Origin: Patescibacteria group bacterium
GTDB lineage: Bacteria > Patescibacteriota > Patescibacteriia > JACRDY01
Direction: 5' to 3'
Assembly: GCA_041650515.1 (NCBI GenBank)
Contig: JBAZLA010000001.1
Location: 146,710-210,709, forward strand
Length of the DNA: 64,000 bases
The position numbers and the translations under genes are program-made. The notes under the pieces were generated by a model. That model did no database searches and was not told where the DNA came from. It saw nothing but the letters and a program-made list of their open reading frames with translations. This document shows, one piece after another, positions 5,542-61,004 of the stretch; positions within the stretch are counted from its first letter, which is position 1; each line of letters begins with the position of its first letter.

Positions 5542-5697
5542 GGGGGTTTGGGGCGAATACGGCGCGAAGCCGAGCTCCGACCTTTTTTGATTACGCCGAG
5601 GAGCGAGGCGGGTAGAACGAGCTGGGGATGAACAACGAATCGCGCCTGATGAGCCCCAAAGCTTTTTTGGTTACTTTTTTGGCTACAAAAAAGTAAC
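5542..5697 (+). repeat. Structured intergenic repeat family, copy 1 (GGGGTTTGGGG...CCCCAAAGC TTTTTT + GTTACTTTTTTGGNTACAAAAAAGTAAC hairpin)
   Basis: It shares a conserved core with the copies at 13634, 23507, 26186, 51869 and 60850. The core is GGGGTTTGGGGCG-AATACGGCGCGAAGCCGAG...GAGCGAGGCGGGTAGAAC...AACAATGAATCGCGCC...GCCCCAAA. Confidence 0.75.
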
Positions 5698-5722
5698 CTA
5701 CCTGCTAATAAAATAATACCTG

Positions 5723-6238
5723 TTATTTTTTTAACCACGCCGCTAGCGCCTGTTGAGCTAACTCCAACCGATTGGCAAAATCTGGCTCCTTAATCTCAAA
5801 ACTAATATCCTTGGAATAATTATCTAAAATCTGTCGATGATCACCCAGATGTTTATCCAGATATTCCAGCGCCCAGTTATATTGTTTACTTTGGTACAAC
5901 TGGCGAAGAAATTTGGGGGATAGCTCAATATTAATCAAAAAATATTCGTAACCGACTTCGACCAACTTGGCCTTTAATTCTGGCCAAACCCGATCAACAC
6001 TCGCATCATAAATAAAACTATCTCCCTTAGCTAAAATCTCTGCCAAGCGTTGGTCACGAATGACCAAATATTTAGCCTGATCAAAAGCGCCGTGGTCTTC
6101 AATCACTTCGGTCCGCATGATGTCATTACTAAAAATCGGCAAATTCAAATTCCAACTCAAATAATGAGCAATCGGCGTTTTGGAACAACCCGGCACGCCG
6201 GTAAATAAAACGATAAACTTTTTTGATAATATACTCAT
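5723..6238 (-). CDS. P-loop NTPase / predicted kinase (Walker A GVPGCSKT)
   Basis: A 171-aa ORF. The N-terminal FTGVPGCSKTPIAHYL matches the P-loop. Confidence 0.5.
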   Translation of the reverse strand: MSILSKKFIVLFTGVPGCSKTPIAHYLSWNLNLPIFSNDIMRTEVIEDHGAFDQAKYLVIRDQRLAEILAKGDSFIYDASVDRVWPELKAKLVEVGYEYFLINIELSPKFLRQLYQSKQYNWALEYLDKHLGDHRQILDNYSKDISFEIKEPDFANRLELAQQALAAWLKK

Positions 6239-6342
6239 TCTAATAAACTTAGAGTTCAGACTGATTTACATAAGTATGCAGTATGCGGGAATTAACGCCC
6301 ACGGACAACGAGATTCAACCCCTGCATACTGCATACTAAATA

Positions 6343-6999
6343 TTATTTCTTCCGATTTTTCCTCCGCCACTCAGTAATTTTTTGGTGGTCGCCCGAAAGT
6401 AAAACCGGTGGTACGCGCCAAGACTGCTTACCCGCTTTAAAAACCTCCGGCCGAGTGTACTGCGGGTACTCGGCAAAATATTCTAATTCTTTGGAAAAAG
6501 TTTCTTCCTTAAGCGATTCTTGTTTACCCAGAACTCCGGGGATTAAGCGCGAAACCGCCTCAACTACCACCATGGCTGGAATCTCGCCGCCAGAGAGAAC
6601 ATAATCGCCAACCGAAATTCGCGCATCAACCAGTTTTTTGATCCGCTCATCAAAACCTTCATACCGGCCGCAAAGCATAACTAATTGATCAAGTTGAGAA
6701 AATTTCTGCGCCATTTTCTGATTAAACCTTTTCCCTGCCGGATCGAACATTATCACCAAACTTTTTTTGCCCTTTTTTATCTTCTCTAAACATTTATAAA
6801 ACGGCTCAACCATCAAAAGCATGCCTGGTCCGCCGCCATATGGTTTATCATCAACGGTGTGATGCCGGTCTTGAGTACAGTCGCGTAAATTGTGGATTTT
6901 AATCTGAATCTTTTTCTTCTGCTGAGCAATTTTAAGAATCGACTCACTAAAGTAGGAGCTAAAAATTTGGGGGAAGATTGTGATAATTTCGAATTGCAT
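6343..6999 (-). CDS. trmD: tRNA (guanine37-N1)-methyltransferase
   Basis: 218 aa with the TrmD motifs DDKPYGGGPGM, RYEGFDERI and SVGDYVLSGGE. Confidence 0.85.
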   Translation of the reverse strand: MQFEIITIFPQIFSSYFSESILKIAQQKKKIQIKIHNLRDCTQDRHHTVDDKPYGGGPGMLLMVEPFYKCLEKIKKGKKSLVIMFDPAGKRFNQKMAQKFSQLDQLVMLCGRYEGFDERIKKLVDARISVGDYVLSGGEIPAMVVVEAVSRLIPGVLGKQESLKEETFSKELEYFAEYPQYTRPEVFKAGKQSWRVPPVLLSGDHQKITEWRRKNRKK

Positions 7000-7154
7000 A
7001 CGCTATAGTACTTAATACATAGTACACAGTACAGAGTAAATTGACCAGCCAGCAACATTTGGCTGATGTACTCTGTACTCAGTACTGTGTACTATTATAA
7101 AACAAAAACCGTCGGTTTGTCACCAACGGTCTTCGTTTTATTCAATGAACAATT

Positions 7155-7481
7155 TTAGATTTTGAGATTATCAATAGAGTCAGTGTCGACGTCAGCACTA
7201 GCGGCGCTAGCAGCGCTAGCCATCGCATGGCGAGAACCTTCTGGTTCGTGGATTTTTAGATTAACTCGCGCATTCAAACGAGCACCCACGATTTTGAGCA
7301 AGGTACGAATTGATCGAGCAGTTTGACCCTGCTTACCGATGACATAACCCATATCGGCTTGATTGACGTGTAAGGTGATTAAAACACCCATCTCGTCAAC
7401 TTTACGTTCGGTTTTGACATCATCAGGATTACCGACGATCGCTTTGACAACATCCTCAACAAACTTCTGATCCTTTTCCAT
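7155..7481 (-). CDS. KH-domain RNA-binding protein (KhpA/YlqC-like)
   Basis: 108 aa containing VIGKQGQTARSIRTLL, a GXXG KH motif. It sits between rpsP and trmD as in the canonical operon. Confidence 0.7.
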   Translation of the reverse strand: MEKDQKFVEDVVKAIVGNPDDVKTERKVDEMGVLITLHVNQADMGYVIGKQGQTARSIRTLLKIVGARLNARVNLKIHEPEGSRHAMASAASAASADVDTDSIDNLKI

Positions 7482-7601
7482 AGGAATTTTAGATTACTTT
7501 ATTGTTAAATTGCAGGACTGCCGACCCTTCTTTGGTCCCAAGCGGGATTAGAGAATACAGCCTGATAGATAATATTATATACAAAACAATCAACTAGTCA
7601 A

Positions 7602-7970
7602 TTAAACTTTTGGCTCGTTCTCAGCGGGCTTTTCCTCGGCCGATTTTTCCTCAGCAGCTGCCGCTGGTTTTTCTTCGGCTCCTTTTGCGGCCTCTTTTTT
7701 CTTCAACCGAAAAGCATGCACCTTGGCCCCAGTAATAACACCTTGGCTAACCAAAAGATTGTGAACCGAAGCTGACGGCTGGGCACCTTTAGATAACCAA
7801 TATTTGATTCTCTCGGTTTCTAAATTAACAATTTTGGGATTAGCCCGACGATTCCAAGTACCCACAAATTCCAAAACATCGCCCAAGGCGTCTTTGGTTT
7901 TTTCAGCTACTGTTAAACGGAAAGTCGGCGCATTCTTGCGGCCAAAACGGGTTAAACGAATCATCAACAT
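7602..7970 (-). CDS. rpsP: 30S ribosomal protein S16 (with KE/A-rich C-terminal tail)
   Basis: The internal start MLMIRLTRFGRKNAPTFRLTV matches the S16 N-terminus. The upstream part of the listed ORF is probably not translated. Confidence 0.8.
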   Translation of the reverse strand: MLMIRLTRFGRKNAPTFRLTVAEKTKDALGDVLEFVGTWNRRANPKIVNLETERIKYWLSKGAQPSASVHNLLVSQGVITGAKVHAFRLKKKEAAKGAEEKPAAAAEEKSAEEKPAENEPKV

Positions 7971-8147
7971 AATTGAAAGGTTAAGGATTAGGGTTAAAGC
8001 AAACCAACGTGTTTGCCCATTGTAGGGACATTGTCCTAATTTTGACAGTAGCCCCAGGATACCAAAATACTTTGTTTTAGTCAAGAATCTTGACGGCTAA
8101 CCATCCAACGGGTAATATTGATAATTCATCAACAAAGGGGGGAACCA

Positions 8148-8837
8148 ATGGGCCAATGTCCATTAACAACTTTAGCTGCTCAGAAGAAGATTGACCTGCC
8201 CGGCGAACGACAGCTGGAGTGGATCTACAACCCAGCGCTAAATGAGGTCTCTTTCCGGCTTGATCGGGCAGGTAAGATCGTTTGGCTGATCAGTCTCCAT
8301 CCACTGCCTGGCGGACGATATGAAGAGACCAGTGTCGACATGCTAGGTAAGTTGATCGGGCGACGATGGCAAATGGCTGATGTCAACCTGGAATACCAGC
8401 TGGTCCAGGCCATCATCGAGGCGAACGCACTACTCGATGACCAATTTCCGCTGGTCCAACCAGGGATCTACCAGGCGGTCAAAGATTGGCTGGGGACGAT
8501 CCTTGAAGTTGGCGGCATGGTCAACTTGGTGCTTTGGCTCAAAAAAGTCGGACCAAAATCTGATGCCGGTCGGCTGTTCATCTACCGGGCCAACAACCAT
8601 CAACCGCCGATTCTAACTGGCCGGATCAACAACGCTGACGGCCTGGCCAGACTGATGGCCAAAACCCGGGCTGACGAACAGCCAAACATCTGCCGCCGGT
8701 TGCTGGAATTAATCCCGGAAGAAATCCGGGAAAACGCCAGCAGTCTCCGGCTGGCTGCGGAGATCGCCAGCAAACGCGAAGACTTCCGCGTCTATATGCT
8801 GACTGTCTTCAATAAACTAATTGACTTGGCCAAATAA
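8148..8837 (+). CDS. Hypothetical protein, GC-rich (~53% GC) island
   Basis: The ORF starts at MGQCPLTT after the ribosome-binding site aaaggggggaacc. Hairpin terminators follow it (accgcctcaccgcggttttttt and tctcccctttttaaggggaga). Confidence 0.5.
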   Translation: MGQCPLTTLAAQKKIDLPGERQLEWIYNPALNEVSFRLDRAGKIVWLISLHPLPGGRYEETSVDMLGKLIGRRWQMADVNLEYQLVQAIIEANALLDDQFPLVQPGIYQAVKDWLGTILEVGGMVNLVLWLKKVGPKSDAGRLFIYRANNHQPPILTGRINNADGLARLMAKTRADEQPNICRRLLELIPEEIRENASSLRLAAEIASKREDFRVYMLTVFNKLIDLAK

Positions 8838-8999
8838 CGCCAAGAAGATTAGTACCAACCGCCTCACCGCGGTTTTTTTAATTCTCCCCTTTTTAAGGGG
8901 AGAATTAAAATGGGGTTCTACCTCTCCTTTCTGAGGGGAGGGCAGGGTGGGGTTCTATCTCCCCCTACTAAGGGGGAGGTGGCCGCAGGCCGGAGGGGG

Positions 9000-11273: not shown

Positions 11274-11336
11274 AAAAACAAAAAAGTTGCTTCTATTTTA
11301 GAATAAAAACAACTTTGGCGCAAACGTCAGCTTGCC

Positions 11337-12173: not shown

Positions 12174-12255
12174 AGATTTTTCAAATTATTAATCCAAAAA
12201 GATGACTTTATATAATCATCTTAGATTAAAATGGTTTTCCCAGCAAATCATTCAA

Positions 12256-13485: not shown

Positions 13486-13633
13486 ATATAAATAATCAAT
13501 TTAAGGTAAAAATATTTTACCACACTCAATCAAGTGTAACAAGCAATTAATCACCGGCGGCTTCTATTCTAAAACTATACTCTTTCCGATTTTTAGTTTT
13601 AATTTTAAAACCATAAAGATATTAATCCAGTAG

Positions 13634-13789
13634 GGGTTTGGGGCGAATATGGCGCGGAGCCGAAGTCCCCATCTGGTCGATACTGACCAGGGGACGAGGC
13701 GATTAAAACTAATTTCAAACTAAACAATGAATCGCGCCTTATAAGCCCCAAAACTTTTTTGGTTACTTTTTTGGTTGCAAAAAAGTAAC
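13634..13789 (+). repeat. Structured intergenic repeat family, copy 2 (with ~70-bp 5' preface from ~13560)
   Basis: It has the same GGGGTTTGGGGCGAATATGGCGCGGAGCCGAAG...CGCGCCTTATAAGCCCCAAAAC TTTTTTGGTTACTTTTTTGGTTGCAAAAAAGTAAC architecture. The internal hairpin GTCCCC...GGGGAC is compensatory relative to copy 5. Confidence 0.75.
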
Positions 13790-13830
13790 ATATTAAGACA
13801 ATTTTAGTAACAATAAAAACATCCCCCGAT

Positions 13831-13968
13831 TTAGCGAGGAAGTCTTTTTTTGAGAATTTTATTCAGAGCCTTGGAGGGGCGGCGCTGGCGATTGATCACT
13901 TTACCTTTTTTAATCTGTTTTTGACGAGCAATTTTAGCGCTATTACCCCATTTAAAATTATTGGGCAT
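13831..13968 (-). CDS. Possible small basic protein (45 aa; MPNNFKWGNSAKIARQKQIKKGKVINRQRRPSKALNKILKKRLPR)
   Basis: A short, highly basic ORF with no clear ribosome-binding site. It was found by manual translation and is below the ORF-track cutoff. Confidence 0.2.
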   Translation of the reverse strand: MPNNFKWGNSAKIARQKQIKKGKVINRQRRPSKALNKILKKRLPR

Positions 13969-14027
13969 ATCAGAAGTTTAGTTACTAAGTAGCTACAGCC
14001 TAGCAGAAAATCCACTAACTGCCAAGA

Positions 14028-14765: not shown

Positions 14766-14776
14766 AAATCAAAAAG

Positions 14777-23349: not shown

Positions 23350-23506
23350 AAGTTAGCTTTCTTTAATATTGATTATCTGACCCTATTATACCAAGCTAAA
23401 CAAAAATGAACTACCATCGACTCAGCGGCGACGGTTCCGTTCGACTGACTACGCCAGGGTAGTTTTATTATTATTATTTCAAAACGACCAAGATATCAAA
23501 CTGCCC

Positions 23507-23712
23507 GGGGTTTGGGGCAAATACGGCGCGAAGCCGAAGCTCCGACCTTTTCTGATTACGCCAAGGAGCGAGGCGGGTTAGTCCGTAGACAGCTAAACAA
23601 TGAATCGCGCCTTATGAGCCCCAAAACTTTTTTGGTCCGCCTAGACTCGCTAGGCGAGGCTGGTTACTTTTTTGCCCGCCTTGCCGGCGAGGCAGGGTTA
23701 CAAAAAAGTAAC
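23507..23712 (+). repeat. Structured intergenic repeat family, copy 3 (preface from ~23440; extra hairpin inserted in terminal loop)
   Basis: It reads GGGGTTTGGGGCAAATACGGCGCGAAGCCGAAGCTCCGACC...GAGCGAGGCGGGTTAGTCCG...AATGAATCGCGCCTTATGAGCCCCAAAAC TTTTTTGG...GTTACAAAAAAGTAAC. Confidence 0.75.
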
Positions 23713-23956
23713 AACTGCAACAACCGTAGCAGGTAAATACAGCTACGGAATTAATAACCCGGGAGCTATATTAGAAAACGTACTCACCAACTGACGCTAG
23801 TGACTTATCTGGTTAACTAAAAAGCGGTTACTTTTGGACTAATGAAACGTTACAACTAATAGCGCCGGCTCGCTAAAATAATCTATGCTATACTTAAAGA
23901 AATAGTTACCCGATGTAATACCCCAAATAAGGACAAAAAATAATTGCTAAATCTAG

Positions 23957-24527: not shown

Positions 24528-26081
24528 ATGAACGACAAAATAAGAATCATCCTTGATGACCTCTACGCCCAAGACTCTAGCCTACGCCAACACGAAGAAA
24601 CACTCATCCAACTAATCAATGATTTTTTAGCTACCAAGCCCGACGTCCAAATTGACGAACAATTTATCCATCAACTGCGACAAACCCTTTTAGCCAAAGC
24701 TCAAGAGCTCGGACACCCACCCAAAAAAGATTTATTGACCATGATTAACCGATACCGAATCAGCAACAAACTGATCTATATCGCCAGCGGCACTTTTGTT
24801 TTGGCGCTGTTAGTTAGCTCCTTAAAATATGGTGGGGAAAACAGTCTGACTCTAGACCAAGCGCTTAATTTTGATAACCAACTAAAAATCGAAAAAGCTG
24901 AGCATCAAGCTTTTGGTTCCCTAGCCACTCAAGCTAACCTAGCGACTACTAATTATACTAGCCAAGAACTAGGCCTGGCTAGCGCGCCAGTTGCTGATGG
25001 TCGCGGTGGTGGCGGCACGGCAACCAAAGTTATAAGTAGCGAAATAATGATCGAGCCAGGGATGATGCCCCCAATAGATAACTGGCAGCCAACTGAATAC
25101 CAATTTATTTATAAGGGCGAACCGATCGATCCCACCGACACTGAGATAACTGTACTTAAACGGATCAAAATCAACAGTAGCGGCAGTAAACTAGCCCAAG
25201 TACTTAACAAAATAACCTTTGGTCTAATCGAGCCAAAAAACTTTACCAATACCAGTGTAGATAACGTCACTATCTCGGAAAACAAAAGTCTAGGCTATAG
25301 TGTTAATTACAATTTCACCGAAGGCGCTGCTTCGATCTCTGAAAATTATCCCAAATGGCAGCGCTGCGGCGGTGGCGACTGCCAGTATCAACCACTAAGC
25401 CCGGATGATATGCTAAGTGACGCGGTTTTGATCAAATTGGCCGATGAGTTTTTAGCTCAATATAAAATCAATATGACTAACTATGGTTCAGCTATAGTTA
25501 GTAAAACCAACCAACGGGATATGCCAGTAGCTAGTGGCGCTCCTAGTGAATACTACTTACCGGAGAATATCACTCTAGTCTACCCGCTAAAAATCGACGG
25601 GCAAATAGTTTATAACGAAAACGGCGATCCCGACGGCCTGCAAGTCAATATTAATCTACGAGAAAAAAAAGTGGCTAGCGTCTGGAATCTAAACACTCAA
25701 AACTACCAAGCTTCCAGCTATCCGGCCCAAGATAGCGCCGAAAGTATTATTCAACTAGCTGAGCAGGGTGGCTGGCGCAACTACCATTATCCCGCTGCTC
25801 CCGAATCAAAAATTGTGACAATCGAGCTTGGCACACCAATCAAAGGTCTGGTCCGAATTTGGAATTACCAGGGCCTGGTTAGCGACGAGCTACTGGTACC
25901 AGCCTACCTTTTCCCGATAACCAAAGTAACTGGTGAAGACTACTACCGGACTAACGTGATTGTGCCGCTGGCTAAAGACCTGCTGATCAATGACGTCTAT
26001 CCGATACCGCTATTAGAAAAAACTAGGTCCAGTATCACTCCACCAGCCGACATTCAAATCGCGCCTCAACCAAACCAATAA
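24528..26081 (+). CDS. Putative anti-sigma factor (single-pass membrane protein with large extracytoplasmic domain)
   Basis: 517 aa. It begins 4 bp after the sigma factor. There is one transmembrane segment around residue 90. Confidence 0.45.
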   Translation: MNDKIRIILDDLYAQDSSLRQHEETLIQLINDFLATKPDVQIDEQFIHQLRQTLLAKAQELGHPPKKDLLTMINRYRISNKLIYIASGTFVLALLVSSLKYGGENSLTLDQALNFDNQLKIEKAEHQAFGSLATQANLATTNYTSQELGLASAPVADGRGGGGTATKVISSEIMIEPGMMPPIDNWQPTEYQFIYKGEPIDPTDTEITVLKRIKINSSGSKLAQVLNKITFGLIEPKNFTNTSVDNVTISENKSLGYSVNYNFTEGAASISENYPKWQRCGGGDCQYQPLSPDDMLSDAVLIKLADEFLAQYKINMTNYGSAIVSKTNQRDMPVASGAPSEYYLPENITLVYPLKIDGQIVYNENGDPDGLQVNINLREKKVASVWNLNTQNYQASSYPAQDSAESIIQLAEQGGWRNYHYPAAPESKIVTIELGTPIKGLVRIWNYQGLVSDELLVPAYLFPITKVTGEDYYRTNVIVPLAKDLLINDVYPIPLLEKTRSSITPPADIQIAPQPNQ

Positions 26082-26185
26082 AATAAACCGCCGCTCCAAT
26101 AATTATCGGAGCGGTTTTGTTTTACTGACTTCGCCAGCCTAGTTCCTTATTCTTATTTCAAAACGATAAAGATATTAAACTAATA

Positions 26186-26343
26186 GGGGTTTGGGGTCGG
26201 CAAGGGGCCGAGCCGAGTCTCCGACCTTTTCTGACTACACCAAGGAGCGAGGCGGGTAGAACCGTAAATAGATAAACAGTACTTTGCCCCTTGCCGACCC
26301 CAAAACTTTTTTATATTACTTTTTTGGTTACAAAAAAGTAATA
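26186..26343 (+). repeat. Structured intergenic repeat family, copy 4 (preface from ~26122)
   Basis: It reads GGGGTTTGGGGTCGGCAAGGGGCCGAGCCGAG...TACTTTGCCCCTTGCCGACCCCAAAAC TTTTTTATATTACTTTTTTGGTTACAAAAAAGTAAT. The closing helix GGGGTCGGCAAGGGGC/GCCCCTTGCCGACCCC is perfectly complementary and differs from copy 1 by compensatory changes. Confidence 0.75.
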
Positions 26344-26473
26344 TACCAACCAAAGTAAATACCCCTAGGACTGCTCCAATCCGATTTTACGTCGGACCTC
26401 GCAATGACGTGAACAAAAATTTGGCGGTTCGGCCTAAAACCTCTATAATTAGGTTATAATCTAGCAATAAAAT

Positions 26474-31639: not shown

Positions 31640-31672
31640 TAAAACAGCCCCGTAAAACGGGGCTGTTTTATT
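31640..31672. terminator. Bidirectional rho-independent terminator
   Basis: The stem aaaacagccccgtaaaacggggctgtttt sits between convergent genes. Confidence 0.6.
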
Positions 31673-31687
31673 ACTTCGTCGAAGGTA

Positions 31688-31888
31688 TTAGACGCGGGTA
31701 ACGTTGACCGCGCGAGGACCCTTTTCAGAATCTTCGACGTCAAATGTCACAGCATCACCTTCATGAAGAGAGTTGAATTCGACACCTTGAAGGCTTGAGG
31801 AGTGAAAAAACACATCCTTGCCATCGCCATCATCGGGGGCGATAAAGCCAAAGCCTTTGTCGGTCAGTCTTTTAATCTTTCCGTTCAT
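31688..31888 (-). CDS. cspA: Cold-shock protein (CspA family)
   Basis: MNGKIKRLTDKGFGFIAPDDGDGKDVFFHSSSL carries the RNP1/RNP2 motifs. The start is placed at the internal Met. Confidence 0.85.
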   Translation of the reverse strand: MNGKIKRLTDKGFGFIAPDDGDGKDVFFHSSSLQGVEFNSLHEGDAVTFDVEDSEKGPRAVNVTRV

Positions 31889-32118
31889 AATGAGAAAATA
31901 GTTGATTAACTGCAAAGTGGGTTGTGCCGCAGAAATTCGACTGCTTTCTACTTATGGCAAACTTTTTGCACCAGCAATATACCATATAACCAAAAACAAG
32001 TCAACCACCAACCAGCAACTGAGAAAAATATGACTAAAATGTTATTAATAATATTGACAAGAATTATCAAATGATATACCATAAAGCATCCACACTAAAC
32101 CAGGTTGGGAGATCCAGA

Positions 32119-40938: not shown

Positions 40939-40984
40939 ATACATTAATTATTAATTACTAATTAATAATTGGTAACTGTTGTAA

Positions 40985-41264
40985 TCGCCCTCAGTAGGAA
41001 TCCCACCCCTACGGGTGGTGGCCCGTTAGGGCCAGAACCTACAAGAGAACAGTTGCTCTACTACTGGTTTCCAATATTCGCCCTCAGTAGGAATCCCACC
41101 CCTACGGGTGGTGGCCCGTTAGGGCCAGAACCTACAAGAGAACAGTTGCTCTACTACTGGTTTCCAATATTCGCCCTCAGTAGGAATCCCACCCCTACGG
41201 GTGGTGGCCCGTTAGGGCCAGAACCTACAAGAGAACAGTTGCTCTACTACTGGTTTCCAATATT
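40985..41264. repeat. Three tandem 93-bp units, each ending (tRNA orientation) in the 17-nt tRNA-Arg 3' terminus and containing a tRNA-3'-half-like segment with 32-nt double-hairpin insertion
   Basis: The units begin at 40985, 41079 and 41172 and are essentially identical. The next copy at 41265 is the genuine tRNA-Arg. The ORF-track 113-aa frame 40969..41310 is a repeat artefact. Confidence 0.8.
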
Positions 41265-41336
41265 CGCCCTCAGTAGGAATCGAACCTACATATCCAGCTT
41301 AGAAGGCTAGTGTTCTATCCATTGAACTATGAGGGC
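41265..41336 (-). tRNA. tRNA-Arg (anticodon TCT)
   Basis: The reverse complement GCCCTCATAGTTCAATGGATAGAACACTAGCCTTCTAAGCTGGATATGTAGGTTCGATTCCTACTGAGGGCG is a 72-nt cloverleaf. Confidence 0.8.
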
Positions 41337-41389: not shown

Positions 41390-42448
41390 CTAACTCTTTT
41401 TCCGCTGGCGACCATGAAAAGCCTTATAGACCTCACGCAAATGTTTATCGGTAATATGAGTATAAATTTGGGTTGTGGTGATGGAAGCATGGCCCAATAA
41501 CGACTGCACCGAACGGATATCAGCACCAGAAGTTAATAAATCAGTGGCAAAACTATGACGCAAAGTGTGCGGCGTAATCTTTTTGGTGATGCCGGCCAGC
41601 CGAGCGTACTTTTTGATCAATCGTTGCACTGACCGCGGCGTCAAAAAACTCACCTCCTCTACTCCTCTGGACTCTGGACTCGGGACTCGGGACTTATTTG
41701 CCCGATCATGACTAACAAAAATATAATCCGAACCATCCCGTCGAGTCGCCAAATAGCGTCGTAACCAAAATTTAGCTTGGTTAGAAATAAAAACCACTCG
41801 CGGTTTGTCACCCTTGCCCCGGACGGTAAATTCTTCTTTAGCTAGATTAATCTGATCTTTTTGAAGATGGACTAATTCTGAGACGCGCAGACCAGTCGAA
41901 AACAACATTTCTAATATGGCTTTGTCGCGGAGCGGAATAATATTGGCAATATAATCATTACCATCTTGATCAATCTCAACTTTATTAATCTGTAACGGCG
42001 CAGCTAAAAACCGTTCTAGATCGCTGCCTTCTAAATATTCAATGTGCCGTTCGGACTGCCTCGCTAGCTCAATTTTTTCTGGTGCCAAAGACCTAATATC
42101 GTTTTTGGCTAAATATTTAAGAAAAGAGCGCAAAGCAATCAGATGATAGTTCTGAGTGCTACTCTTGAGATTTTTACCATGATCATCAGTAGCTCGATTG
42201 AGCCAAAGCCGAAACTGACGGATCAGGCTCGAGTCGACATCTTCAATCTTAAAACTTTTGTTTTTACTTTTAGCCCAATTAAAAAACCGCTGTAAATAAA
42301 AATCATAATTACGAATCGTAGCTTGCGCTCGACCACGTTCGATCTCGAGATATTCGAGAAAATTAGTGACTAGGGGATTAGCTGACATAATTAAGAAAGC
42401 AAAAAAGCATACGGCCTCTCCGCCGAATCGGCGGATTGGCCTAAGCAA
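41390..42448 (-). CDS. Tyrosine site-specific recombinase/integrase (XerC/D-like)
   Basis: 352 aa with an N-terminal SAM-like domain. The catalytic C-terminus reads HTLRHSFATDLLTSGADIRSVQSLLGHASITTTQIYTHI (R...HxxR...Y). It is adjacent to tRNA-Arg. Confidence 0.8.
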   Translation of the reverse strand: MLRPIRRFGGEAVCFFAFLIMSANPLVTNFLEYLEIERGRAQATIRNYDFYLQRFFNWAKSKNKSFKIEDVDSSLIRQFRLWLNRATDDHGKNLKSSTQNYHLIALRSFLKYLAKNDIRSLAPEKIELARQSERHIEYLEGSDLERFLAAPLQINKVEIDQDGNDYIANIIPLRDKAILEMLFSTGLRVSELVHLQKDQINLAKEEFTVRGKGDKPRVVFISNQAKFWLRRYLATRRDGSDYIFVSHDRANKSRVPSPESRGVEEVSFLTPRSVQRLIKKYARLAGITKKITPHTLRHSFATDLLTSGADIRSVQSLLGHASITTTQIYTHITDKHLREVYKAFHGRQRKKS

Positions 42449-50319: not shown

Positions 50320-50740
50320 TAACTTTTGTTCTTTCTAATCTTTTAGGGAAATGAACCGAATTGAGTTTGTTATTGGATGATTCGACAACAAATCAATCCT
50401 GAGTCCGCCTATGGCAGACGAAGGATCTAGTTGGGTTTATTTCTCTCTCACCCACTCGGTCTTTTTGGAGGCCGCAACCCTCCGCTAAAACAAAAAACAA
50501 AAACGGGCTACACCCTAAACCAGTCACTAGCCCAGACCAGGTGAGTGAGCGACGCGTAACTCAGTTGCAAGTAACGCCCAACGACCTAGAGGTTAAGTTC
50601 TATCCTAGCCCTATAAAAAAGGGCTTAGATAGCGGACCTGTGGGTCCTGTGGGGCGTCTAAAGTGCCTACTATTTATAAAATATCTCATCCAGAGTGGTG
50701 AGGGGGCGCTTCGGCGCCCCCTCTTTTTTTACTTTAAATT
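50320..50740 (+). ncRNA. Candidate ncRNA (~420 nt) bounded by promoter and strong terminator; class unknown
   Basis: No convincing ORF. The listed 81-aa ORF reads through the terminator. A strong terminator, gagggggcgcttcggcgccccctc plus T7, lies at 50700-50737. Internal hairpins are present, including atcctgagtccgcc...ggcagacgaaggat. Confidence 0.3.
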
Positions 50741-50924
50741 AGTACATAGTACTCAGCACCCAGTACACAGAAAAATATTAATCTAATAGCCTAACTAGTT
50801 AATTTACTTCCTAAAGTACTGGGTACTAGGTACTGGGTACTAGTTAATAATTGACAAAACCAATAAATTTGAGATAATGGGACAAACATTATCGAGGAGG
50901 GCTTTTTATTTAGGAATAATTGCT

Positions 50925-51284: not shown

Positions 51285-51285
51285 G

Positions 51286-51735
51286 ATGAACTCTAAGACC
51301 AAATTTTCGCTCTGGGGCTCGACCGCTGGCGGGATATTCATTGCTGACCAACTAATCAAAAACTTTTTATTAAATCACCCCGATTATCAAGGTGATTTTT
51401 GGTTTTTTAAAATCCACTTTTGGCAAAATTCTGGCATTGCTTTCGGCCTACCACTAGCTAACAACTTGGTTATCGTTATCTCCCTTTTGATAATTCTGAC
51501 TCTAACTCTCTGTTGTTTAAGAGAACTTAGAAATAATAATTTTGTGTTAAGTAGCTATATTACCCTAATCAATTATGGCGCTTTCTCCAACTTTATCGAT
51601 CGAATAATTCATAAAGGAGTAATTGATTATATCGACGCCAGTATTGTTCCTTGGCCGGTATTCAATCTGGCGGATATACTGATTGTGGTGGGGGTTTTGG
51701 GGTGGCTAATTTATTTATTAAGAAACAAAAAGTAA
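51286..51735 (+). CDS. lspA: Lipoprotein signal peptidase II
   Basis: 149 aa with the NSGIAFG and FNLADI motifs. Confidence 0.85.
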   Translation: MNSKTKFSLWGSTAGGIFIADQLIKNFLLNHPDYQGDFWFFKIHFWQNSGIAFGLPLANNLVIVISLLIILTLTLCCLRELRNNNFVLSSYITLINYGAFSNFIDRIIHKGVIDYIDASIVPWPVFNLADILIVVGVLGWLIYLLRNKK

Positions 51736-51868
51736 TTTCTATAATCCTGTTTCCCCTCCCCAAGAGGGGATTTTTAGTTTGGGTTAATTTTTATTTTAAG
51801 TGGAGTTAATCTATATCCACATAATATAAGATATAGACAAATCCACCGCCGCTAAACTAATAGAACCG

Positions 51869-52049
51869 GTTGGGGTCTGGGGCGGATGCGGCGCCGAGTC
51901 CCGCCCCGGCCTCTTTGGTCTTTCCTTAGGGGCGGGACGGGTAGAACGAACTAAAGTTCAACAATGAATCGCGCCTCATTATGTCTCTTGGCGCCAAGAG
52001 ACATAATCCCCAGGACTTTTTTGCTACTTTTTTAGTCATAAAAAAGTAG
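51869..52049 (+). repeat. Structured intergenic repeat family, copy 5 (divergent; hairpin GTCCCGCCCC/GGGGCGGGAC)
   Basis: It reads GGTTGGGGTCTGGGGCGGATGCGGCGCCGAG...GGGCGGGACGGGTAGAACG...AACAATGAATCGCGCC...GACTTTTTTGCTACTTTTTTAGTCATAAAAAAGTAG. Confidence 0.7.
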
Positions 52050-52107
52050 AAAGAGTCCGTGACATAAACCACTCGATCCTTCGACTCGCCCTACGGGCTC
52101 GCTCAGG

Positions 52108-53643: not shown

Positions 53644-53680
53644 TTACAAATTACGAATTACAAATTATCAATTTAAGACT

Positions 53681-54043: not shown

Positions 54044-54064
54044 TTCGTAATCTGCAATTCGTAA

Positions 54065-55363: not shown

Positions 55364-55678
55364 ACCCTTCAGAACAAGCGCGGCCGATTGAATTCCGATT
55401 TTTTTAAGTATTGGGGAGATATGTTTTCAATTTAATCAGTCTCTAGTCTATCAAGATAGCCCCCCAGGGTCAAGCTAGTCTAGTGCTAGCTTGGCACTAT
55501 CAAAAATGGCAATAACTACCGCCCTTCAATCATGAATTAAGTTATTCACCAGAGCAGACAAAACAGTGGGTATCGAGACGCTCAACTAATAATCAACAAA
55601 TTGACATTTTTGGGCTAAAACTTTAAGATATTAGCTGTTGATTAAAATATATTTTAATTAAGTCTTAAAAATCAAATT

Positions 55679-57709
55679 ATGTCTAGTGGTCTCATCCTCT
55701 TCACGCTAGTCTGTGCTTTCTTGGCCATTGCTTATGGCTTCGTTCTGATCTTCATAATTCTCAAGAAGCCAACTGGCGACGAAAAAATGCAATCAATCGC
55801 CAAAGCGATTCAGGAAGGAGCTAAAGCTTATCTCAACCGGCAGTATCGAACTATCGCGATTATTGCGGCGATTTTATTTATCGCTCTTGGTCTGGCCTTA
55901 AACTGGTTAACCGCTTTAGCCTTTTTGGTCGGGGCAGTTTTCTCAGCTTTGGCTGGCTACATTGGCATGAATGTCTCGGTGCGAGCTAATGTCCGAACAA
56001 CTGAAGCCGCCAAAAGCGGCCTGGCTCCGGCCCTAGCAGTAGCCGTTAAAGGTGGTTCAGTCACTGGTTTGCTAGTAGTTGGCCTGGGGTTACTCGGTGT
56101 CGCTGGTTTTTATTATATTTTAACTCTAATTGGCCAAACACCAGCCGAAGCGACTAAAGTTCTAATCGGCTTGGGTTTTGGTGGCAGCTTAATCTCGGTC
56201 TTTGCCCGGCTCGGTGGCGGCATCTATACCAAAGCCGCTGATGTTGGCGCTGACCTAGTTGGTAAAGTCGAAGCTGGTATCCCCGAAGACGACCCACGCA
56301 ACCCAGCCGTAATCGCTGACAACGTCGGTGATAATGTCGGCGACTGCGCTGGTATGGCTGCCGATTTGTTTGAAACCTATGCCGTGACTTCTGTCGCGGC
56401 CATGCTTTTAGGCTCACTCTTATTCAAAGATTTTGAAGCCGCTATCATCTACCCGCTAGTCTTAGGTGGGGTAGCTATCCTAACCTCTATTGTTGGCAGT
56501 TTCTTCATCAAGCTTGGTCGCAGCCAGAATATCATGGGCGCCCTCTACAAAGGCCTGGCCGCCGCCGGAATATTAGCCGCGATCCTCTTCTACTTTGTTA
56601 CTGACTGGCTGATGAAAGGTAATGGCCAATATGAACCCTGGCAAATTTTTGTCAGCGCTCTGATCGGTTTAGTCATAACCGCCTTAATTGTGGTTATTAC
56701 TGAATATTATACTTCAACCAAATATAAACCGGTTCAAAATATCGCCGCTGCTTCTCAGACTGGCCACGGGACTAATATTATCGCTGGTCTAGCGTTATCA
56801 ATGAGATCAACCGCTTGGCCAGTTCTAGTGATCGCCGCTGGTATTTTTGGCGCTTATTACCTAGCTGGCCTTTACGGCATCGCCATCGCCGTCATGGCTA
56901 TGCTTTCTTTATCCGGCATTATCGTCACCATCGACTCATATGGCCCAATTACTGACAATGCTGGCGGTATTGCCGAGATGGCTAATCTGCCCGAGTCGGT
57001 TCGTCATATCACTGATCCGCTAGATGCGGTTGGCAACACCACCAAAGCGGTAACTAAAGGCTACGCTATTGGTTCGGCTGGTCTAGCCGCGGTGGTGCTT
57101 TTTGCTTCTTACATCCAAGAATTTATTGACCGGGGTAAAGAGCTGGTCTTTTTGCTCTCTGATCCGCTGGTTATCATTGGCTTATTTATTGGCGGACTTT
57201 TACCTTATCTCTTCGGCGCTTTTTCCATGGAAGCAGTGGGTAAAGCGGCTGGCCAAGTAGTAGAAGAAGTGCGCAGCCAATTCAAAAACAACCCTGGGAT
57301 TATGCAAGGAACTAGCAAACCAGACTATGGCCGAACCGTTGATATTGTTACTAAGTCAGCGCTCAAGCAAATGATTATACCCGCTTTATTGCCAGTGCTA
57401 ACGCCGATCCTGGTTGGCCTTATTTTGGGCCCGGTTGCTCTAGGCGGCGTCTTAATTGGGAGTATTGTTACCGGTATCTTTTTAGCAATCTCCATGACCA
57501 CCGGTGGCGGTGCCTGGGATAATGCCAAAAAATATATTGAACAGGGTAACTTTGGCGGCAAGGGCAGTGAAGCCCATAAAGCCGCTGTGACTGGTGACAC
57601 TGTTGGCGACCCTTATAAAGACACGGCTGGTCCGGCTATTAACCCAATGATCAAAATCCTCAATGTTGTTGCCCTACTAATGGTTAGTCTGCTGATTAAG
57701 ATGATGTAA
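55679..57709 (+). CDS. hppA: Membrane-bound H+(Na+)-translocating pyrophosphatase
   Basis: 676 aa. [19 protein letters not shown]...[21 protein letters not shown]...[14 protein letters not shown] carries the H+-PPase signatures. Confidence 0.9.
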
Positions 57710-57902
57710 ACAAAACACCACATCTCAGCCTTTAAGTAAACAAAACACCCCCGCCTAAGCGGGGTGTTTTGTATCTTATTCAGCTATCTCTATAGGCATA
57801 CCCTTGACTTATTCTAAAAAATAATTTAAGATAAAAAATCTTTTCGAAAATATTCCAAGGGGAGCTAGCGCTTCTAACTTTTCCTGCACAGGGGGGAAAT
57901 TT

Positions 57903-58160
57903 ATGATTTTTCTGAAAGTTAAACAGCAGATCGCCACCGAGGGTTTTGAAACCCAAGCGGTGGCGAGGGTCACCGAGCTGCCAGCCAAGCTGGAGCTCGG
58001 ACAAACGGTCCGGGTATGTTACCTGGGCCAAAACCGCAAATGGACTCTGACCGAACAGAAAGTTCGGCTGGACTGGGATGGTCAGTGGCGGCACTTGGGT
58101 GAGCCGATACCCGACCAGGCCGAAGGCGGTCGCCCGGTCGACAAGGCCGACACGTCCTAG
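57903..58160 (+). CDS. Hypothetical small protein, GC-rich island
   Basis: 85 aa with the ribosome-binding site cacaggggggaaatttATG. A T-run terminator follows. Composition is ~58% GC. Confidence 0.4.
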   Translation: MIFLKVKQQIATEGFETQAVARVTELPAKLELGQTVRVCYLGQNRKWTLTEQKVRLDWDGQWRHLGEPIPDQAEGGRPVDKADTS

Positions 58161-58245
58161 CAGCGCGACACCACAACCAAACATTGTGTGTGGATCGATC
58201 GCTGCTTTTTTTTATTATTTTAAAATGTTAAAATAGGGCTAACCT

Positions 58246-59385
58246 ATGATTGGCCACTCCAAAATTTCTTTTGCTTTTGCCACCTCGATCGGCACCGCTA
58301 TCGGTGTCGGCCTTTTTGCCCTGCCATACCTCGCTAGCCAAACTAGCTTTGCCACCTTGCTGGCTTATTTTATTGTTTTAGGTATTCTAATCACCATTAT
58401 TCAACTAATCTACGGCGAGATTATCACTAAGACAGAACAGCGTCACCAACTCTCTGGCTACGCCAAGATCCATCTTGGTCCACACTGGCAGCCTTGGGTT
58501 TTTGTGGTCGAGTTTTTGGGTATCATCGGCGCCCTAACTGCCTATCTAGTGGTGGGCGGAAAATTTCTCTACTTATTATCGTCGCCGCTAATTGGTGGCG
58601 GGGTAACACTCTATGTCTTGATCTATTTTTCATTGGGCACCCTACTAGTCTACTGGGGGATTCAGTCGGTGGCTGGCTCGGAATTAGTTTTGGTTGGCTT
58701 ATTAATTGGGACAATTATTTTTCTCTTTTTGGCTAACTACACTAGGCTGGATTTCCAGCTACTGACCAATATCAGCGCCAAAAATCTTTTTTTACCTTAC
58801 GGCGCGGTACTTTTTGCTCTGTGGAACGGTACGGTGATACCCGAAGTAGCTGAAGTGCTGGACAAAAACCACCGCCAATTAAAAAAAATAATAATCCTTT
58901 CGACTCTATTATCTATCATCCTGTATATTATTTTTGTTATCACAGTTTTTGGTCTTAGCGGCGATCACACGTCAAGCGATGCTCTAACTGGGTTAGCCCA
59001 ATATTTTTCACCAACCCTACTGACTGTTGCCCTGGTTCTTGGCCTACTAGCCACTTTCACCTCTTTTATTTCACTCGCTATGGCGGCTAAGAACTCCCTA
59101 ACGGAAGATTGGCGACTCAAGCCAAGGTTGGCTTGGTTTGGCGTTTGTTTTCTGCCGCTGGCGCTCTATTTTTTGGGCGCCCAAAACTTTTTAACGATTA
59201 TCAGCTTAACCGGTGCAATCATGTTTGGCGCCTATGGCTTCCTGATACTGCTGATTTATCTTAAAATAAAAAACCGGCCAACCGGTGATTACCATCTCAA
59301 CTTGCCTAAAACCCTGGTCTATTTTCTAGGCATCGTTCTGGCCTTAGGCGTTATCGGCGAAATCTTTTATACCCTAACTAGATAA
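58246..59385 (+). CDS. Amino-acid permease (HAAAP/Trp-Tyr permease-like, 11 TM)
   Basis: A 379-aa polytopic ORF beginning MIGHSKISFAFATSIGTAIGVGLFALPY. Confidence 0.5.
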   Translation: MIGHSKISFAFATSIGTAIGVGLFALPYLASQTSFATLLAYFIVLGILITIIQLIYGEIITKTEQRHQLSGYAKIHLGPHWQPWVFVVEFLGIIGALTAYLVVGGKFLYLLSSPLIGGGVTLYVLIYFSLGTLLVYWGIQSVAGSELVLVGLLIGTIIFLFLANYTRLDFQLLTNISAKNLFLPYGAVLFALWNGTVIPEVAEVLDKNHRQLKKIIILSTLLSIILYIIFVITVFGLSGDHTSSDALTGLAQYFSPTLLTVALVLGLLATFTSFISLAMAAKNSLTEDWRLKPRLAWFGVCFLPLALYFLGAQNFLTIISLTGAIMFGAYGFLILLIYLKIKNRPTGDYHLNLPKTLVYFLGIVLALGVIGEIFYTLTR

Positions 59386-59467
59386 AACCAGCCAGGATTG
59401 ATTTCCCCAGTTAATTCTGCTAAACTAGAACGACTTTTATAATTATTTAAACGTTAAATACCACGTT

Positions 59468-60742
59468 ATGATTATTACCAAAAATCAAATTAGCCAGACC
59501 CAGGTTGAGCTAACGATTGAGTTAACCGTTGATGAAATCAAACCGTTCTTAGCCAAAGCAGCTGACAAAATCTCCCAGACAACCAAGATTGCTGGCTTTC
59601 GTCCAGGTAAGGCCCCTTATGACGTTATAAAAAACCAAGTCGGCGAGATGACGATCTACCAAGAAGCAACCGAGGCTATCGTGGCGGCCACATTATTTGA
59701 GGCGTTAGAAAAAGAGCTGCCCGACGCCGAAATCGTTGGCCAGCCACAGATTAATATCGAAAAAATGGCCCCCGATAATCCACTGAGCTACAAAGCACTA
59801 GTCACTTTGGTTCCGGAGATCAAGTTAGGTGATTACCAAAATCTAAAAATCACCAAAAAAGAAATCAAAATTGACGAGGAAAAAATTAAAAAAACATTGG
59901 CCAGCCTAACCAAGATGATGGCTAAAGAAGAAATCAAAACCGGACCGCTAGCTAAAGGGGATAAAGCGGTTGTTTCTTTTCAGGTTTTTGTTGATCGGGT
60001 TTTGATCGAAGGTGGCGCCCATCAAAGCTACCCAATAGTCATTGGCGAAGATACTTTTATTCCCGGCTTTGAAGACCAGCTGGTCGGCCTGAGTAAAGGC
60101 GACAAAAAAGAATTTGAATTAAATTTTCCCGAAAAATACCACCAAAAAAACTTGGCTGGTAAATTAGCCCTCTTTAAAGTGGAGATTGTCGAAACTTATA
60201 GTTACCAGCCAGCTGAACTTACTGACGACTTTGCTAAAACCCTTAATTACCAAAACCTAGACGAACTTAAACAAAATGTTCGAACCAGTATTGAACAAGA
60301 GGCCAAGGTAAAAGAAAACCAACGACAGGAGTTAGAACTTTTGGAGCAATTAATCGCCGTTTCCACTTTTGGCGAGCTACCGCAGACTTTGCTGGATAAG
60401 GAAGCCCACAAAATGGTTCACGAGCTAGAACACGGCATCGCTCAGCAAGGCTTAAAGTTTGAAGACTATTTGGCTCACCTCAAAAAAACCGAAGCTGATT
60501 TAGAAAAAGAATTTTTACCAGAGGCCGCCAAAAGAATCAAAACCAGCCTAATCTTGCGCCAGATTGCTAAAGAACAAAAGATTGTTGTCTCTAAAGAAGA
60601 CCTTGACCAGGAGATCACTAAAATCAGCCAAAACTACCAAGATAATCCTGAAGCATTGGAGCAAATTAAAACAGCTGGCTATCGTCACTATCTAAGCAAC
60701 GCCATGACCAATCAGAGAGTAATGGATTTTCTAAAAAAATAA
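59468..60742 (+). CDS. tig: Trigger factor
   Basis: 424 aa with the ribosome-binding motif GFRPGKAP, an FKBP-like PPIase region and a C-terminal domain. Confidence 0.85.
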   Translation: MIITKNQISQTQVELTIELTVDEIKPFLAKAADKISQTTKIAGFRPGKAPYDVIKNQVGEMTIYQEATEAIVAATLFEALEKELPDAEIVGQPQINIEKMAPDNPLSYKALVTLVPEIKLGDYQNLKITKKEIKIDEEKIKKTLASLTKMMAKEEIKTGPLAKGDKAVVSFQVFVDRVLIEGGAHQSYPIVIGEDTFIPGFEDQLVGLSKGDKKEFELNFPEKYHQKNLAGKLALFKVEIVETYSYQPAELTDDFAKTLNYQNLDELKQNVRTSIEQEAKVKENQRQELELLEQLIAVSTFGELPQTLLDKEAHKMVHELEHGIAQQGLKFEDYLAHLKKTEADLEKEFLPEAAKRIKTSLILRQIAKEQKIVVSKEDLDQEITKISQNYQDNPEALEQIKTAGYRHYLSNAMTNQRVMDFLKK

Positions 60743-60849
60743 ACCGACAACCGATCGCTCCGCTAATCAGCGGAGCGATTTTGTTTTACTAAGCCACGCA
60801 TGCCTATCCTACTATCTTTGTTTCAAAACAACGAAGGTGCAGAACCAGC

Positions 60850-61004
60850 GGGGTTTGGGGGCGGCACGGGGCGGAGCCGAAGCTTCGACCTCTTCTGATT
60901 ACACCGAGGAGCGAGGCGGATTAATCCGTAAGTAGATAAACAATACTTTGCCCCTTGCCGCCCCCAAAACTTTTTTGCATTACTTTTTTGGTTACAAAAA
61001 AGTA
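60850..61004 (+). repeat. Structured intergenic repeat family, copy 6 (preface from ~60784)
   Basis: It reads GGGGTTTGGGGGCGGCACGGGGCGGAGCCGAAG...GAGCGAGGCGG...TTTGCCCCTTGCCGCCCCCAAAAC TTTTTTGCATTACTTTTTTGGTTACAAAAAAGTAG. Confidence 0.75.

Follow-up and report, generated by a model that had tools for sequence, protein, structure and literature searches.

Among described systems, those closest to the element reported here are the REP/BIME and REPIN repeats of proteobacteria (associated with RAYT), the Correia (Neisseria), BOX/RUP (Streptococcus), RPE (Rickettsia), and ERIC repeats, and small RNAs (sRNAs) encoded in several copies per genome, such as Qrr, LhrC, and the csRNAs. Here, we describe six copies of a folded intergenic element within a 64,000-nt stretch (the window) of a 472.5-kb contig (JBAZLA010000001.1) belonging to the metagenome-assembled genome (MAG) of a Patescibacteria group bacterium. 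The six repeats are members of a previously undescribed, large family of folded elements found across the Patescibacteria (candidate phyla radiation, CPR), best described as belonging to the known kind of interspersed structured intergenic repeats or multi-copy sRNAs. The family is distinguished by an interchangeable middle within a conserved chassis, a pseudoknot built with two U-tracts and one A-tract, and a strand bias relative to replication. A first-pass annotation had already placed six copies, every one on the + strand, at positions with which our rereading, repeat finding, and pattern counts agree; the breadth of the family, the chassis with its interchangeable middle, the pseudoknot, and the co-varying run lengths go beyond that account.

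With the REP/BIME and REPIN repeats the element shares a multi-copy and extragenic distribution, hairpin formation, homogeneity within a genome, compensating changes, and possible activity as a single strand. However, REPs are 20- to 40-nt palindromes headed by a conserved GTAG-type sequence and REPINs form symmetric doublets, whereas the units described here are long (115 to 180 nt) and asymmetric, with distinct 5' and 3' modules and a pseudoknot, and thus lack the palindromic organization of REPs and REPINs. No RAYT-like gene is found among the 368 open reading frames (ORFs) flanking the loci studied, nor in the Pfam lists for approximately positions 1 to 57,500 of the window, a range that ends before the copy 6 region. 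To our knowledge, the replication-strand bias has no counterpart among REPs. The Correia, BOX/RUP, RPE, and ERIC repeats resemble the element as 100- to 200-bp non-coding repeats with stable predicted folds that lie between genes; they sometimes carry promoters or terminators and are also present in reduced genomes. They are lineage-restricted, mostly bounded by terminal inverted repeats (TIRs) with target duplications, and occur in both orientations, whereas the present element spans many Patescibacteria lineages, is constant only in its end chassis, and is strongly oriented. The multi-copy sRNAs are likewise paralogous, co-folding genes of one genome that each end in a stem and a U-run. In contrast to their 2 to 7 copies with defined regulators, we observe 6 copies in 64 kb here, up to 3 in 4 kb elsewhere, and no consistent promoter; we know of no replication-strand rule for Qrr, LhrC, or csRNAs.

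The chassis consists of a 5' GGGGUYUGGGG that pairs with a 3' CCCCAR to form helix P1, and of a 3' module with the form CCCCA-N1N2N3-C-U5/6-(2-3 nt)-UAC-U5/6-loop-A5/6-GUA. Between the chassis ends lies an inner domain of approximately 45 to 115 nt, which falls into several mutually unrelated, lineage-specific classes and in this genome comprises a P2 helix (GGCGC/GCGCC), a P3 hairpin, and the conserved joining strands GGGUAGAAC and AAACAAUGAAU. The three bases that precede the first U-run (N2N3C) find their complement in the AU-hairpin loop, which yields an H-type pseudoknot with the order S1a-L1-S2a-S1b-L3-S2b and two interleaved helices, each supported by covariation. The pseudoknot pairings seen are AAC/GUU, CAC/GUG, GAC/GUC, AGC/GCU, AUC/GAU, UGC/GCA, CGC/GCG, and GGC/GCC, and hairpin insertions are confined to loops and linkers. 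An outer extension of P1, in which the 5' GGGG would pair with N2N3C and the U's, shows no covariation (mutual information of 0.13 versus 0.67 to 1.42 for real pairs). We treat the likeness of GGGGTTTGGGG/CCCCAAAAC to a ciliate telomere or telomerase template as a coincidence, since both strands pair together.

The first-pass annotation had read the paired differences between copies as selection on structure, and the wider family bears this out. In an alignment of 117 members, 94.2% of the helix cells are standard pairs, compared to 79.1% in shuffles and 41 to 60% with slid partners, and the covariation score over P1, the hairpin, and the pseudoknot is 0.355 versus 0.104 in shuffles, none of 500 shuffles reaching the former value. 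Both-side changes occur in 19 of the 25 pairs, and a MAFFT alignment was also analyzed. The pseudoknot was absent from the covariance model behind the 117-member alignment; here, pair N2-l3 is AU in 64 members, CG in 23, GC in 14, and UA in 9, and pair N3-l2 is AU in 80, GC in 27, UA in 4, and GU in 2. Compensation is visible within the window as well, where the pseudoknot pairs as AGC/GCU in copy 1, GAC/GUC in copy 5, and AAC/GUU in the other four, and the previously cited examples (the stems of copy 4 versus copy 1, and the internal hairpin GTCCCGCCCC/GGGGCGGGAC of copy 5 versus GTCCCC/GGGGAC of copy 2) are present as written. Members outside the search pattern replace UAC/GUA by UUC/GAA, UCC/GGA, or UUUC/GAAA, and in locus L080 the otherwise invariant C is changed to G, matched by a G-to-C change in the loop. 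We thus observe a conserved fold that includes the pseudoknot.

Two observations concern palindromes inside the element. G+C-rich palindromes (CCTGCC...GGCAGG, CTGCCCGCCTCTGGCGGG, TGTCTCTTGGCGCCAAGAGACA) are inserted in element loops and linkers of several genomes, at 23636-23661, 23675-23696, and 51979-52006 of the window, at 7335-7478 and 8945-9088 of L105, and in the interiors of L005 and L013; they may form a separate family of mini-hairpin insertions. In L056 (2448-2566), the AU-hairpin loop is reverse-complemented (GTAACC for GGTTAC) and the pseudoknot pairing is lost, which suggests a DNA-level flip of the palindrome.

The breadth of the family emerges from several searches. A covariance model was trained on 89 metagenome relatives of short and medium type, excluding the window itself, and was run on both strands with filters off; its six best matches in the window are exactly the six copies (53.2, 52.7, 50.6, 48.4, 38.1, and 24.1 bits); matches on the − strand are only partial and fall on the palindromic AU hairpin of the same six copies. 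Two further weak matches, at 51691-51794 (18 bits) and 50695-50749 (16 bits), were not accepted as copies. The former lies at the end of the signal-peptidase II gene and holds GGGGGTTTTGGGG and AAACAAAAAGTAA followed by an ordinary terminator, either by chance or as a decayed fragment. At least 116 loci were obtained by a metagenome scan for the 3' module, which has 124 pattern matches across all loci studied plus the window, and the model identifies additional copies in many loci, with up to three in 4 kb (L105). The inner-domain class of the window recurs in L069, L104, L076, and L091. Scanning a genome collection for two P1 arms at the spacing seen in the window returned two true relatives, one in a Magasanikbacteria MAG and one in another Patescibacteria MAG, along with eight matches in unrelated phyla that we take for chance matches. 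Element sequences are homogeneous inside one genome and divergent between genomes, and the 2.9 million viral contigs of IMG/VR contain no match.

The element had initially been left without a named RNA family, and it remains so: Rfam 15 gives no match for any class, even at permissive thresholds. Over the whole window no match covers the element on its strand at the gathering threshold or at E<=10, and the same is true of the element strand for 20 short- or medium-type loci at the gathering threshold and for 10 at E<=5. A literature search by topic and by literal sequence returned no description of the element.

A further regularity lies in the length of the homopolymer runs. U-run1, U-run2, and the A-run are equal in length, being 5/5/5 in 86 of 114 members and 6/6/6 in 16, where approximately one 6/6/6 case is expected if the runs varied independently; four copies found without the search-pattern constraint are 4/4/4. 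In L105, the A-run is AAGAAA, U-run2 is UUUCUU, and run 1 is UUC[insert]UUU, the mirror order needed by a parallel third strand, in a single case that is interrupted by an insertion. A helix between U-run1 and the A-run would explain the equal lengths, but the informative flanking pairs neither pair nor covary, and the C-to-G change of L080 is compensated in the loop rather than after the A-run. Because this competing helix lacks covariation support, we favor a placement of U-run1 in the major groove of the U/A helix, where it would form U·A-U triples with the hairpin. Phased A-tract bending of DNA was also rejected, as the spacers stay at 5 to 6 nt when run length changes, so that phase is lost.

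U·A-U major-groove triplexes are known from telomerase RNA, SAM-II, preQ1-II, ENE, MALAT1, and transposon RNAs, and a review (PMC13541005) mentions bacterial triple helices only in riboswitches and a group II intron and not in dispersed repeats. The element has the strand order and polarity of the telomerase/SAM-II type of triplex pseudoknot (the 5' strand of stem 1, a U-rich loop 1, the 5' strand of stem 2 with U's at its end, the 3' strand of stem 1, a short loop, and an A-rich 3' strand), and it resembles U/A triplex RNAs in having two U-tracts and a genomically encoded A-tract of equal length. It differs in that stem 1 is only 3 to 4 bp, stem 2 carries an extra 5 to 6 bp, the triples are inferred, and nothing points to a ligand-specific or template function.

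It is the given strand that folds. Wobble pairs in the helices are asymmetric (51 G·U versus 7 A·C, or 20 versus 7 minus one doubtful pair), and of 103 members, 86 fold more stably as the given strand than as the complement (mean difference of -3.6 kcal/mol; p = 7e-14). GC skew of the + strand ranges from −0.01 to −0.18 in nearly every 4-kb segment of the window (28-32 kb, +0.002), and this negative skew persists through gene blocks of both orientations. Since, in addition, the 16S rRNA gene and all five tRNA genes of the window lie on the − strand, the + strand of the window is the lagging strand.

Co-orientation of the six copies, which had been argued to speak for a transcribed or replication-oriented element, proves meaningful and linked to replication, as the element sits on the C-rich strand in 96 of 118 loci. 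When ORFs are split by strand, the replication component of the skew is -0.073 (negative in 37 of 43 loci) and the coding component is +0.085. Of the adjacent copy pairs, 10 of 13 elsewhere and 5 of 5 in the window (15 of 18 together) point the same way. The flanking genes are arranged as (-,-) in 41 cases, (+,+) in 12, convergent in 8, and divergent in 3, with the window adding three (+,+) cases, and at those (+,+) loci where the replication component could be measured it remains negative (8 of 8). Replication direction is a better predictor of element orientation than the neighboring genes are: about 85% of loci carry the element on the C-rich, lagging strand, irrespective of how the neighbors are oriented. 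Separately, we observe head-to-head element pairs only 45 to 90 nt apart in L055 (3765-4034) and L072 (3515-3853). The skew flips sign at the L055 pair (+0.12 to the left, -0.04 to the right), as expected at a replication terminus, and does not flip at the L072 pair.

The element is always intergenic and is linked to no particular gene. Clustering of the 368 flanking ORFs reveals no enriched family, the largest cluster having 4 members, which rules out both a leader or riboswitch tied to one gene and a transposase or nuclease next to the element. The downstream gene lies on the opposite strand in 64 of 89 cases, so no conserved downstream gene class exists that a cis-regulatory leader could serve. 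Guide RNAs of transposon nucleases or recombinases (the omega RNA of TnpB or IscB, the bridge RNA of IS110) are likewise rejected, given that no such family neighbors the element and no Rfam match is seen. Within the window, a + strand (lagging-strand) gene ends upstream of each of copies 1, 4, 5, and 6, copy 3 lies between divergent genes, and the genes between copies include those for ribosomal protein S16, TrmD, PNPase, and pyrophosphatase. Every member, even when found without this constraint, has U4-6 directly after P1, so that the G+C-rich stem and U-tract of an intrinsic terminator are present; the placement of an ordinary terminator, at the 3' end of a co-oriented gene, is seen for only 34 of 87 upstream genes. 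Members from other lineages have a small G+C hairpin after the module, and a true terminator 30 to 70 nt beyond the pseudoknot; the 100 nt downstream of the window copies show no conserved feature of this type.

We favor, at roughly even probability, a reading in which each copy is one unit of a Patescibacteria-wide structured family that acts as RNA from the given strand. The RNA would start at or near the 5' GGGG, and UYUGGGG with the next bases would pair with the 3' strand ending in CCCCAR, so that a long P1 encloses the lineage-specific inner domain. N2N3C after P1 would then pair with the loop of the AU-rich hairpin (UAC-Un/An-GUA) to form the H-type pseudoknot, with U-run1 lying along the major groove of the hairpin as U·A-U triples; from the geometry, the distal 5 to 6 bp of the hairpin may set the distance over which the third strand crosses the deep groove. 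P1 and the U-run resemble an intrinsic terminator, and once the downstream hairpin is transcribed, the pseudoknot could displace the outermost P1 pairs and lock the 3' part in a coaxial rod. Such a rod may represent a stability or protein-recognition module with an interchangeable inner domain. Units would have multiplied within genomes as small intergenic modules, their folding strand coming to lie on the lagging strand either through retention or at insertion. RNA-like properties include the pseudoknot, the G·U asymmetry, and the U-run directly behind a stem. Promoter-like sequences are also present in part of the family, with TAAAAT or TATTAA boxes conserved by subfamily 6 to 7 nt before the first G, and a CTGACT-17/18-TATTnT match in the prefaces of copies 3 and 4.

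Several points weigh against this reading. No family-wide -10-like signal stands at a fixed distance, a box at 5 to 7 nt being present in approximately 17 to 20% of members, and the local -10 peak is weak and does not exceed the A+T-rich background further upstream; we therefore do not claim that the element has its own promoter. An independent sRNA gene also gives no reason for the replication-strand bias. Transcription of lagging-strand elements would meet the replication fork head-on, an arrangement that selection normally disfavors. A density of one copy per 4 to 10 kb (the window; L105) in genomes of approximately 1 Mb is more typical of repeats than of RNA genes. The strand test cannot tell RNA from DNA, since G·T pairs also form in single-stranded DNA, and the triple helix is inferred from run lengths and geometry only. 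Unpaired interior columns are no better conserved than paired ones (identity of 0.58 versus 0.75), and we dropped conserved loops as a sign of a trans-acting RNA, the opposite having been found. Finally, a loop-closing pair (G-C in 70 members, A-U in 33) leaves a four-base loop of which three bases are needed for the pseudoknot. Because only these four loop bases remain, the closing pair and the pseudoknot may be alternative states.

Next to transcription of the element as RNA, the reading that survives best, though we consider it clearly less probable, is a mobile or recombination element, non-autonomous and active as folded single-stranded DNA, whose hairpins and loop-to-tail pairing would be recognized by an enzyme encoded elsewhere in the genome. 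The bias would then stem from the availability of single-stranded DNA at the fork, or from selection that keeps a recombinogenic strand off the lagging-strand template. Much of the distribution agrees with this: copies are numerous, dispersed, strictly intergenic, and flanked by unrelated genes, they are homogeneous within and divergent between genomes, and their orientation follows GC skew independently of gene orientation. Every pairwise comparison of copies shows a sharp 3' boundary at the end of the AU hairpin and a variable 5' extent. Assemblies break inside copies, as seen in the contigs of a second assembly of the same strain (copies 3, 4, and 5) and in AMFJ01 contigs that end inside the element, and the inverted loop of L056 points to an event at the DNA level. 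However, no transposase, recombinase, or reverse transcriptase is enriched beside the 118 loci, no target-site duplication or conserved target is seen, the viral contigs are devoid of matches, and two traits, a U-run placed after a stem and a pseudoknot whose strand asymmetry is rich in G·U, are typical of RNA.

Known single-strand systems match this possible DNA element only in part. With integron attC sites it shares conserved paired ends, a variable terminal structure or middle, conservation of structure over sequence, and a single functional strand. In chromosomal integron arrays, the functional attC strand lies on the leading-strand template, the same polarity as that of the element, and selection keeps the recombinogenic strand off the lagging-strand template. 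The attC cores RYYYAAC/GTTRRRY are absent, the element ends being GGGGTYTGGGG ... CCCCARNNC, and there is no association with a cassette array or integrase; the one tyrosine recombinase of the window (41390-42448) lies by a tRNA gene, not a copy. Also unlike attC sites, the element carries the extra U/U/A module, and its copies are spaced 2.6 to 25 kb apart among housekeeping genes. An IS200/IS605 end or a PATE is rejected on polarity: the active folding strand of IS200/IS605 is on the lagging-strand template, whereas the better-folding, C-rich strand of the element is the lagging strand and corresponds to the leading-strand template. No fixed motif is seen beside the elements, and the partner with which N2N3C covaries is the hairpin loop, not a guide at the hairpin foot.

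The first-pass annotation had left the choice between an sRNA family and a structured MITE (miniature inverted-repeat transposable element). Of the two, RNA is retained at about even odds as the favored reading, ahead of the mobile single-stranded element, and the asymmetry and strand bias of the element make a classical TIR/DDE-type MITE unlikely. The arms GGGGUYUGGGG/CCCCAR are internal, the 3' end is the AU hairpin, and no flanking direct repeats are seen, nor does the orientation fit insertion either way around (C-rich strand in 96/118 loci, negative replication component in 37/43, co-oriented pairs in 15/18).

A more speculative proposal, which we regard as improbable on balance, is that the family is a new class of replication-oriented module, ancient in the Patescibacteria, in which a triplex-pseudoknot rod is read by a lineage-specific protein and either manages encounters between transcription and the fork or drives a novel copying process, guided by structure, that places small RNA or DNA modules in the leading-strand template. 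Fork management may here mean a programmed head-on stop or pause, or transcript-assisted events on the lagging strand. If true, an ENE- or telomerase-like triplex would for the first time underlie a dispersed RNA family in bacteria.

Less probable than the mobile element, we think, is a host-serving function as a one-way transcription stop on the lagging strand, made of P1 and the U-run, backed by the pseudoknot, and in need of no promoter of its own. It would halt polymerases that run head-on to the fork, both in lagging-strand genes and in antisense across leading-strand genes, and could thereby explain why the replication-strand rule holds in the (-,-) and the (+,+) contexts alike (41, and 12 plus 3 from the window), why the promoter signal is weak, and why sites are intergenic with no linked gene. 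The position of copies 1, 4, 5, and 6 after lagging-strand genes fits such a stop, whereas copy 3, between divergent genes, does not, and an ordinary terminator already stands immediately upstream of copies 4 and 6. A short G+C hairpin and U-tract would suffice for this task, which leaves unexplained the conserved inner domain of 45 to 115 nt, the invariant GGGGUYUGGGG, and the pseudoknot downstream of the release site. That the copies are inert leftovers of old duplications, whose apparent structure is inherited palindromy without selection, is very improbable, for although copies 4 and 6 are approximately 80 to 88% identical over ~270 nt and could reflect a recent duplication, the same chassis is found in >116 metagenome loci and other Patescibacteria genomes with dozens of independent compensatory changes, no palindrome can generate the pseudoknot, and the folding-strand asymmetry and replication bias are both significant.

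The genomes of Patescibacteria are tiny, with repeats scarce and few regulatory RNAs known. Neutrality is therefore improbable for an element that occupies approximately 2% of these 64 kb and retains one fold across many lineages. As a small module of defined sequence, it is a candidate natural pseudoknot of bacteria with U/U/A tracts of equal length, and its orientation rule connects replication direction with a folded nucleic acid, a link seldom seen beyond Chi, KOPS, IS200/IS605, and integron attC. On the practical side, the element breaks short-read assemblies of these genomes, and its orientation could mark replichores in fragmented CPR bins.

Within the window, TACTTTTTTN6AAAAAAGTA occurs 5 times (0.06 expected) and GGGGTTTGGGG with at most one mismatch 8 times (1.45 expected). 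An A+T-rich preface of approximately 40 to 110 nt and varying extent is common to copies 2, 3, 4, and 6 only; all parts of the copies listed next are on the + strand. Copy 1 (core at 5543-5698; 53.2 bits), without a preface, has its P1 arms at 5543-5553 and, as CCCCAA, at 5654-5659. Its pseudoknot joins A5660, G5661, and C5662 with T5684, C5683, and G5682 in the loop, and U-run1 (5663-5668) is followed by the AU hairpin (5669-5698), composed of U-run2 (5675-5680), the loop GGCTAC (5681-5686), and the A-run (5687-5692). Copy 2 (core at 13633-13790; z -5.1; 48.4 bits) is preceded by an A+T-rich preface at 13560-13632 with AAAGATATTAA 7 nt ahead of GGGG, which resembles the prefaces of copies 3 and 4 from about -42 and -31 relative to GGGG. 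Its P1 arms are at 13633-13643 and 13746-13751, the pseudoknot pairs AAC (13752-13754) with GTT (13774-13776), and U-run1 and the AU hairpin occupy 13755-13760 and 13761-13790. The preface of copy 3 (23432-23506) contains a promoter-like CTGACT-18-TATTAT at 23445-23474 and TTTCAAAACGACCAAGATATCAAAC. The core of this copy (23507-23713) is longer and low-scoring because of two G+C-rich hairpin insertions, one in the linker after U-run1 (23636-23661) and one on the 5' side of the AU-hairpin loop (23675-23696); its 24.1 bits cover the part before the insertions. P1 arms are found at 23507-23517 and 23619-23624, U-run1 at 23628-23633, U-run2 at 23668-23673, the A-run at 23702-23707, and the pseudoknot between AAC (23625-23627) and GTT (23697-23699).

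The preface of copy 4 (26077-26185) begins with the terminator hairpin of the upstream gene (CGCTCC...GGAGCG, then TTTTGTTTT) and continues with CTGACT-17-TATTCT and TTTCAAAACGATAAAGATATTAAAC. Its core (26186-26344; z -4.9; 52.7 bits) has P1 arms at 26186-26196 and 26298-26303, a pseudoknot of AAC (26304-26306) with GTT (26327-26329), U-run1 at 26307-26312, and the AU hairpin at 26313-26344. Copy 5 (core at 51872-52049; z -4.1; 51.1 bits) has no preface and carries a 28-nt hairpin (51979-52006) within the 3' strand of its closing stem. Here, P1 pairs GGGGTCTGGGG (51872-51882) with CCCCAG (52008-52013), a C-G pair standing where other copies have U-A. The pseudoknot is formed by GAC (52014-52016) and GTC (52035-52037), with U-run1 at 52017-52022, and the AU hairpin (52024-52049) has the loop AGTCAT and a closing A-T where other copies have G-C. 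Copy 6 (core at 60850-61004; z -5.9; 50.6 bits) follows a preface at 60733-60849 that comprises the terminator hairpin of the upstream gene and an A+T-rich segment and aligns with that of copy 4, the similarity beginning at -109 (copy 4) and -117 (copy 6), at the terminator hairpin. Its P1 arms are at 60850-60860 and 60962-60967, the pseudoknot at AAC (60968-60970) with GTT (60991-60993), U-run1 at 60971-60976, and the AU hairpin at 60981-61004. Copies 5 and 6 are also alike for approximately 55 nt past the AU hairpin (52050-52107 versus 61005-61057; CCTTCGACTCGC...GCTCGCTCAGG), and similar CTTCGAC strings follow elements in L006, L038, L077, and L083; this shared stretch may be another repeat or a 3' extension of some copies.

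The window holds several other features. The 16S rRNA gene (2937-4590, −) is 1654 nt long, with a ~135-nt A+T-rich inverted-repeat insertion at about 3316-3451 and a spurious ORF inside the gene at 3441-3842, and is followed by tRNA-Ile, tRNA-Phe, and tRNA-Pro, with no 23S gene. In this tRNA cluster downstream of the 16S gene we observe two short duplications, an exact 42-nt tandem copy over the 5' part of tRNA-Phe (2442-2483/2491-2532) and an exact 45-nt G+C-rich hairpin-like duplicate, 440 nt apart, around tRNA-Pro (1694-1738/2134-2178). A sub-threshold match to the cspA thermoregulator (49 bits versus a gathering threshold of 78) covers a cold-shock-domain gene and its leader at 31640-31993 (−). 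Finally, three 93-bp tandem repeats at 40982-41286 (−), each starting with a copy of the 3' end of tRNA-Arg(TCT), adjoin tRNA-Arg (41265-41336) and the tyrosine recombinase ORF (41390-42448; Phage_integrase domains), all on the − strand, and look like stacked attachment-site remnants of integrative elements.

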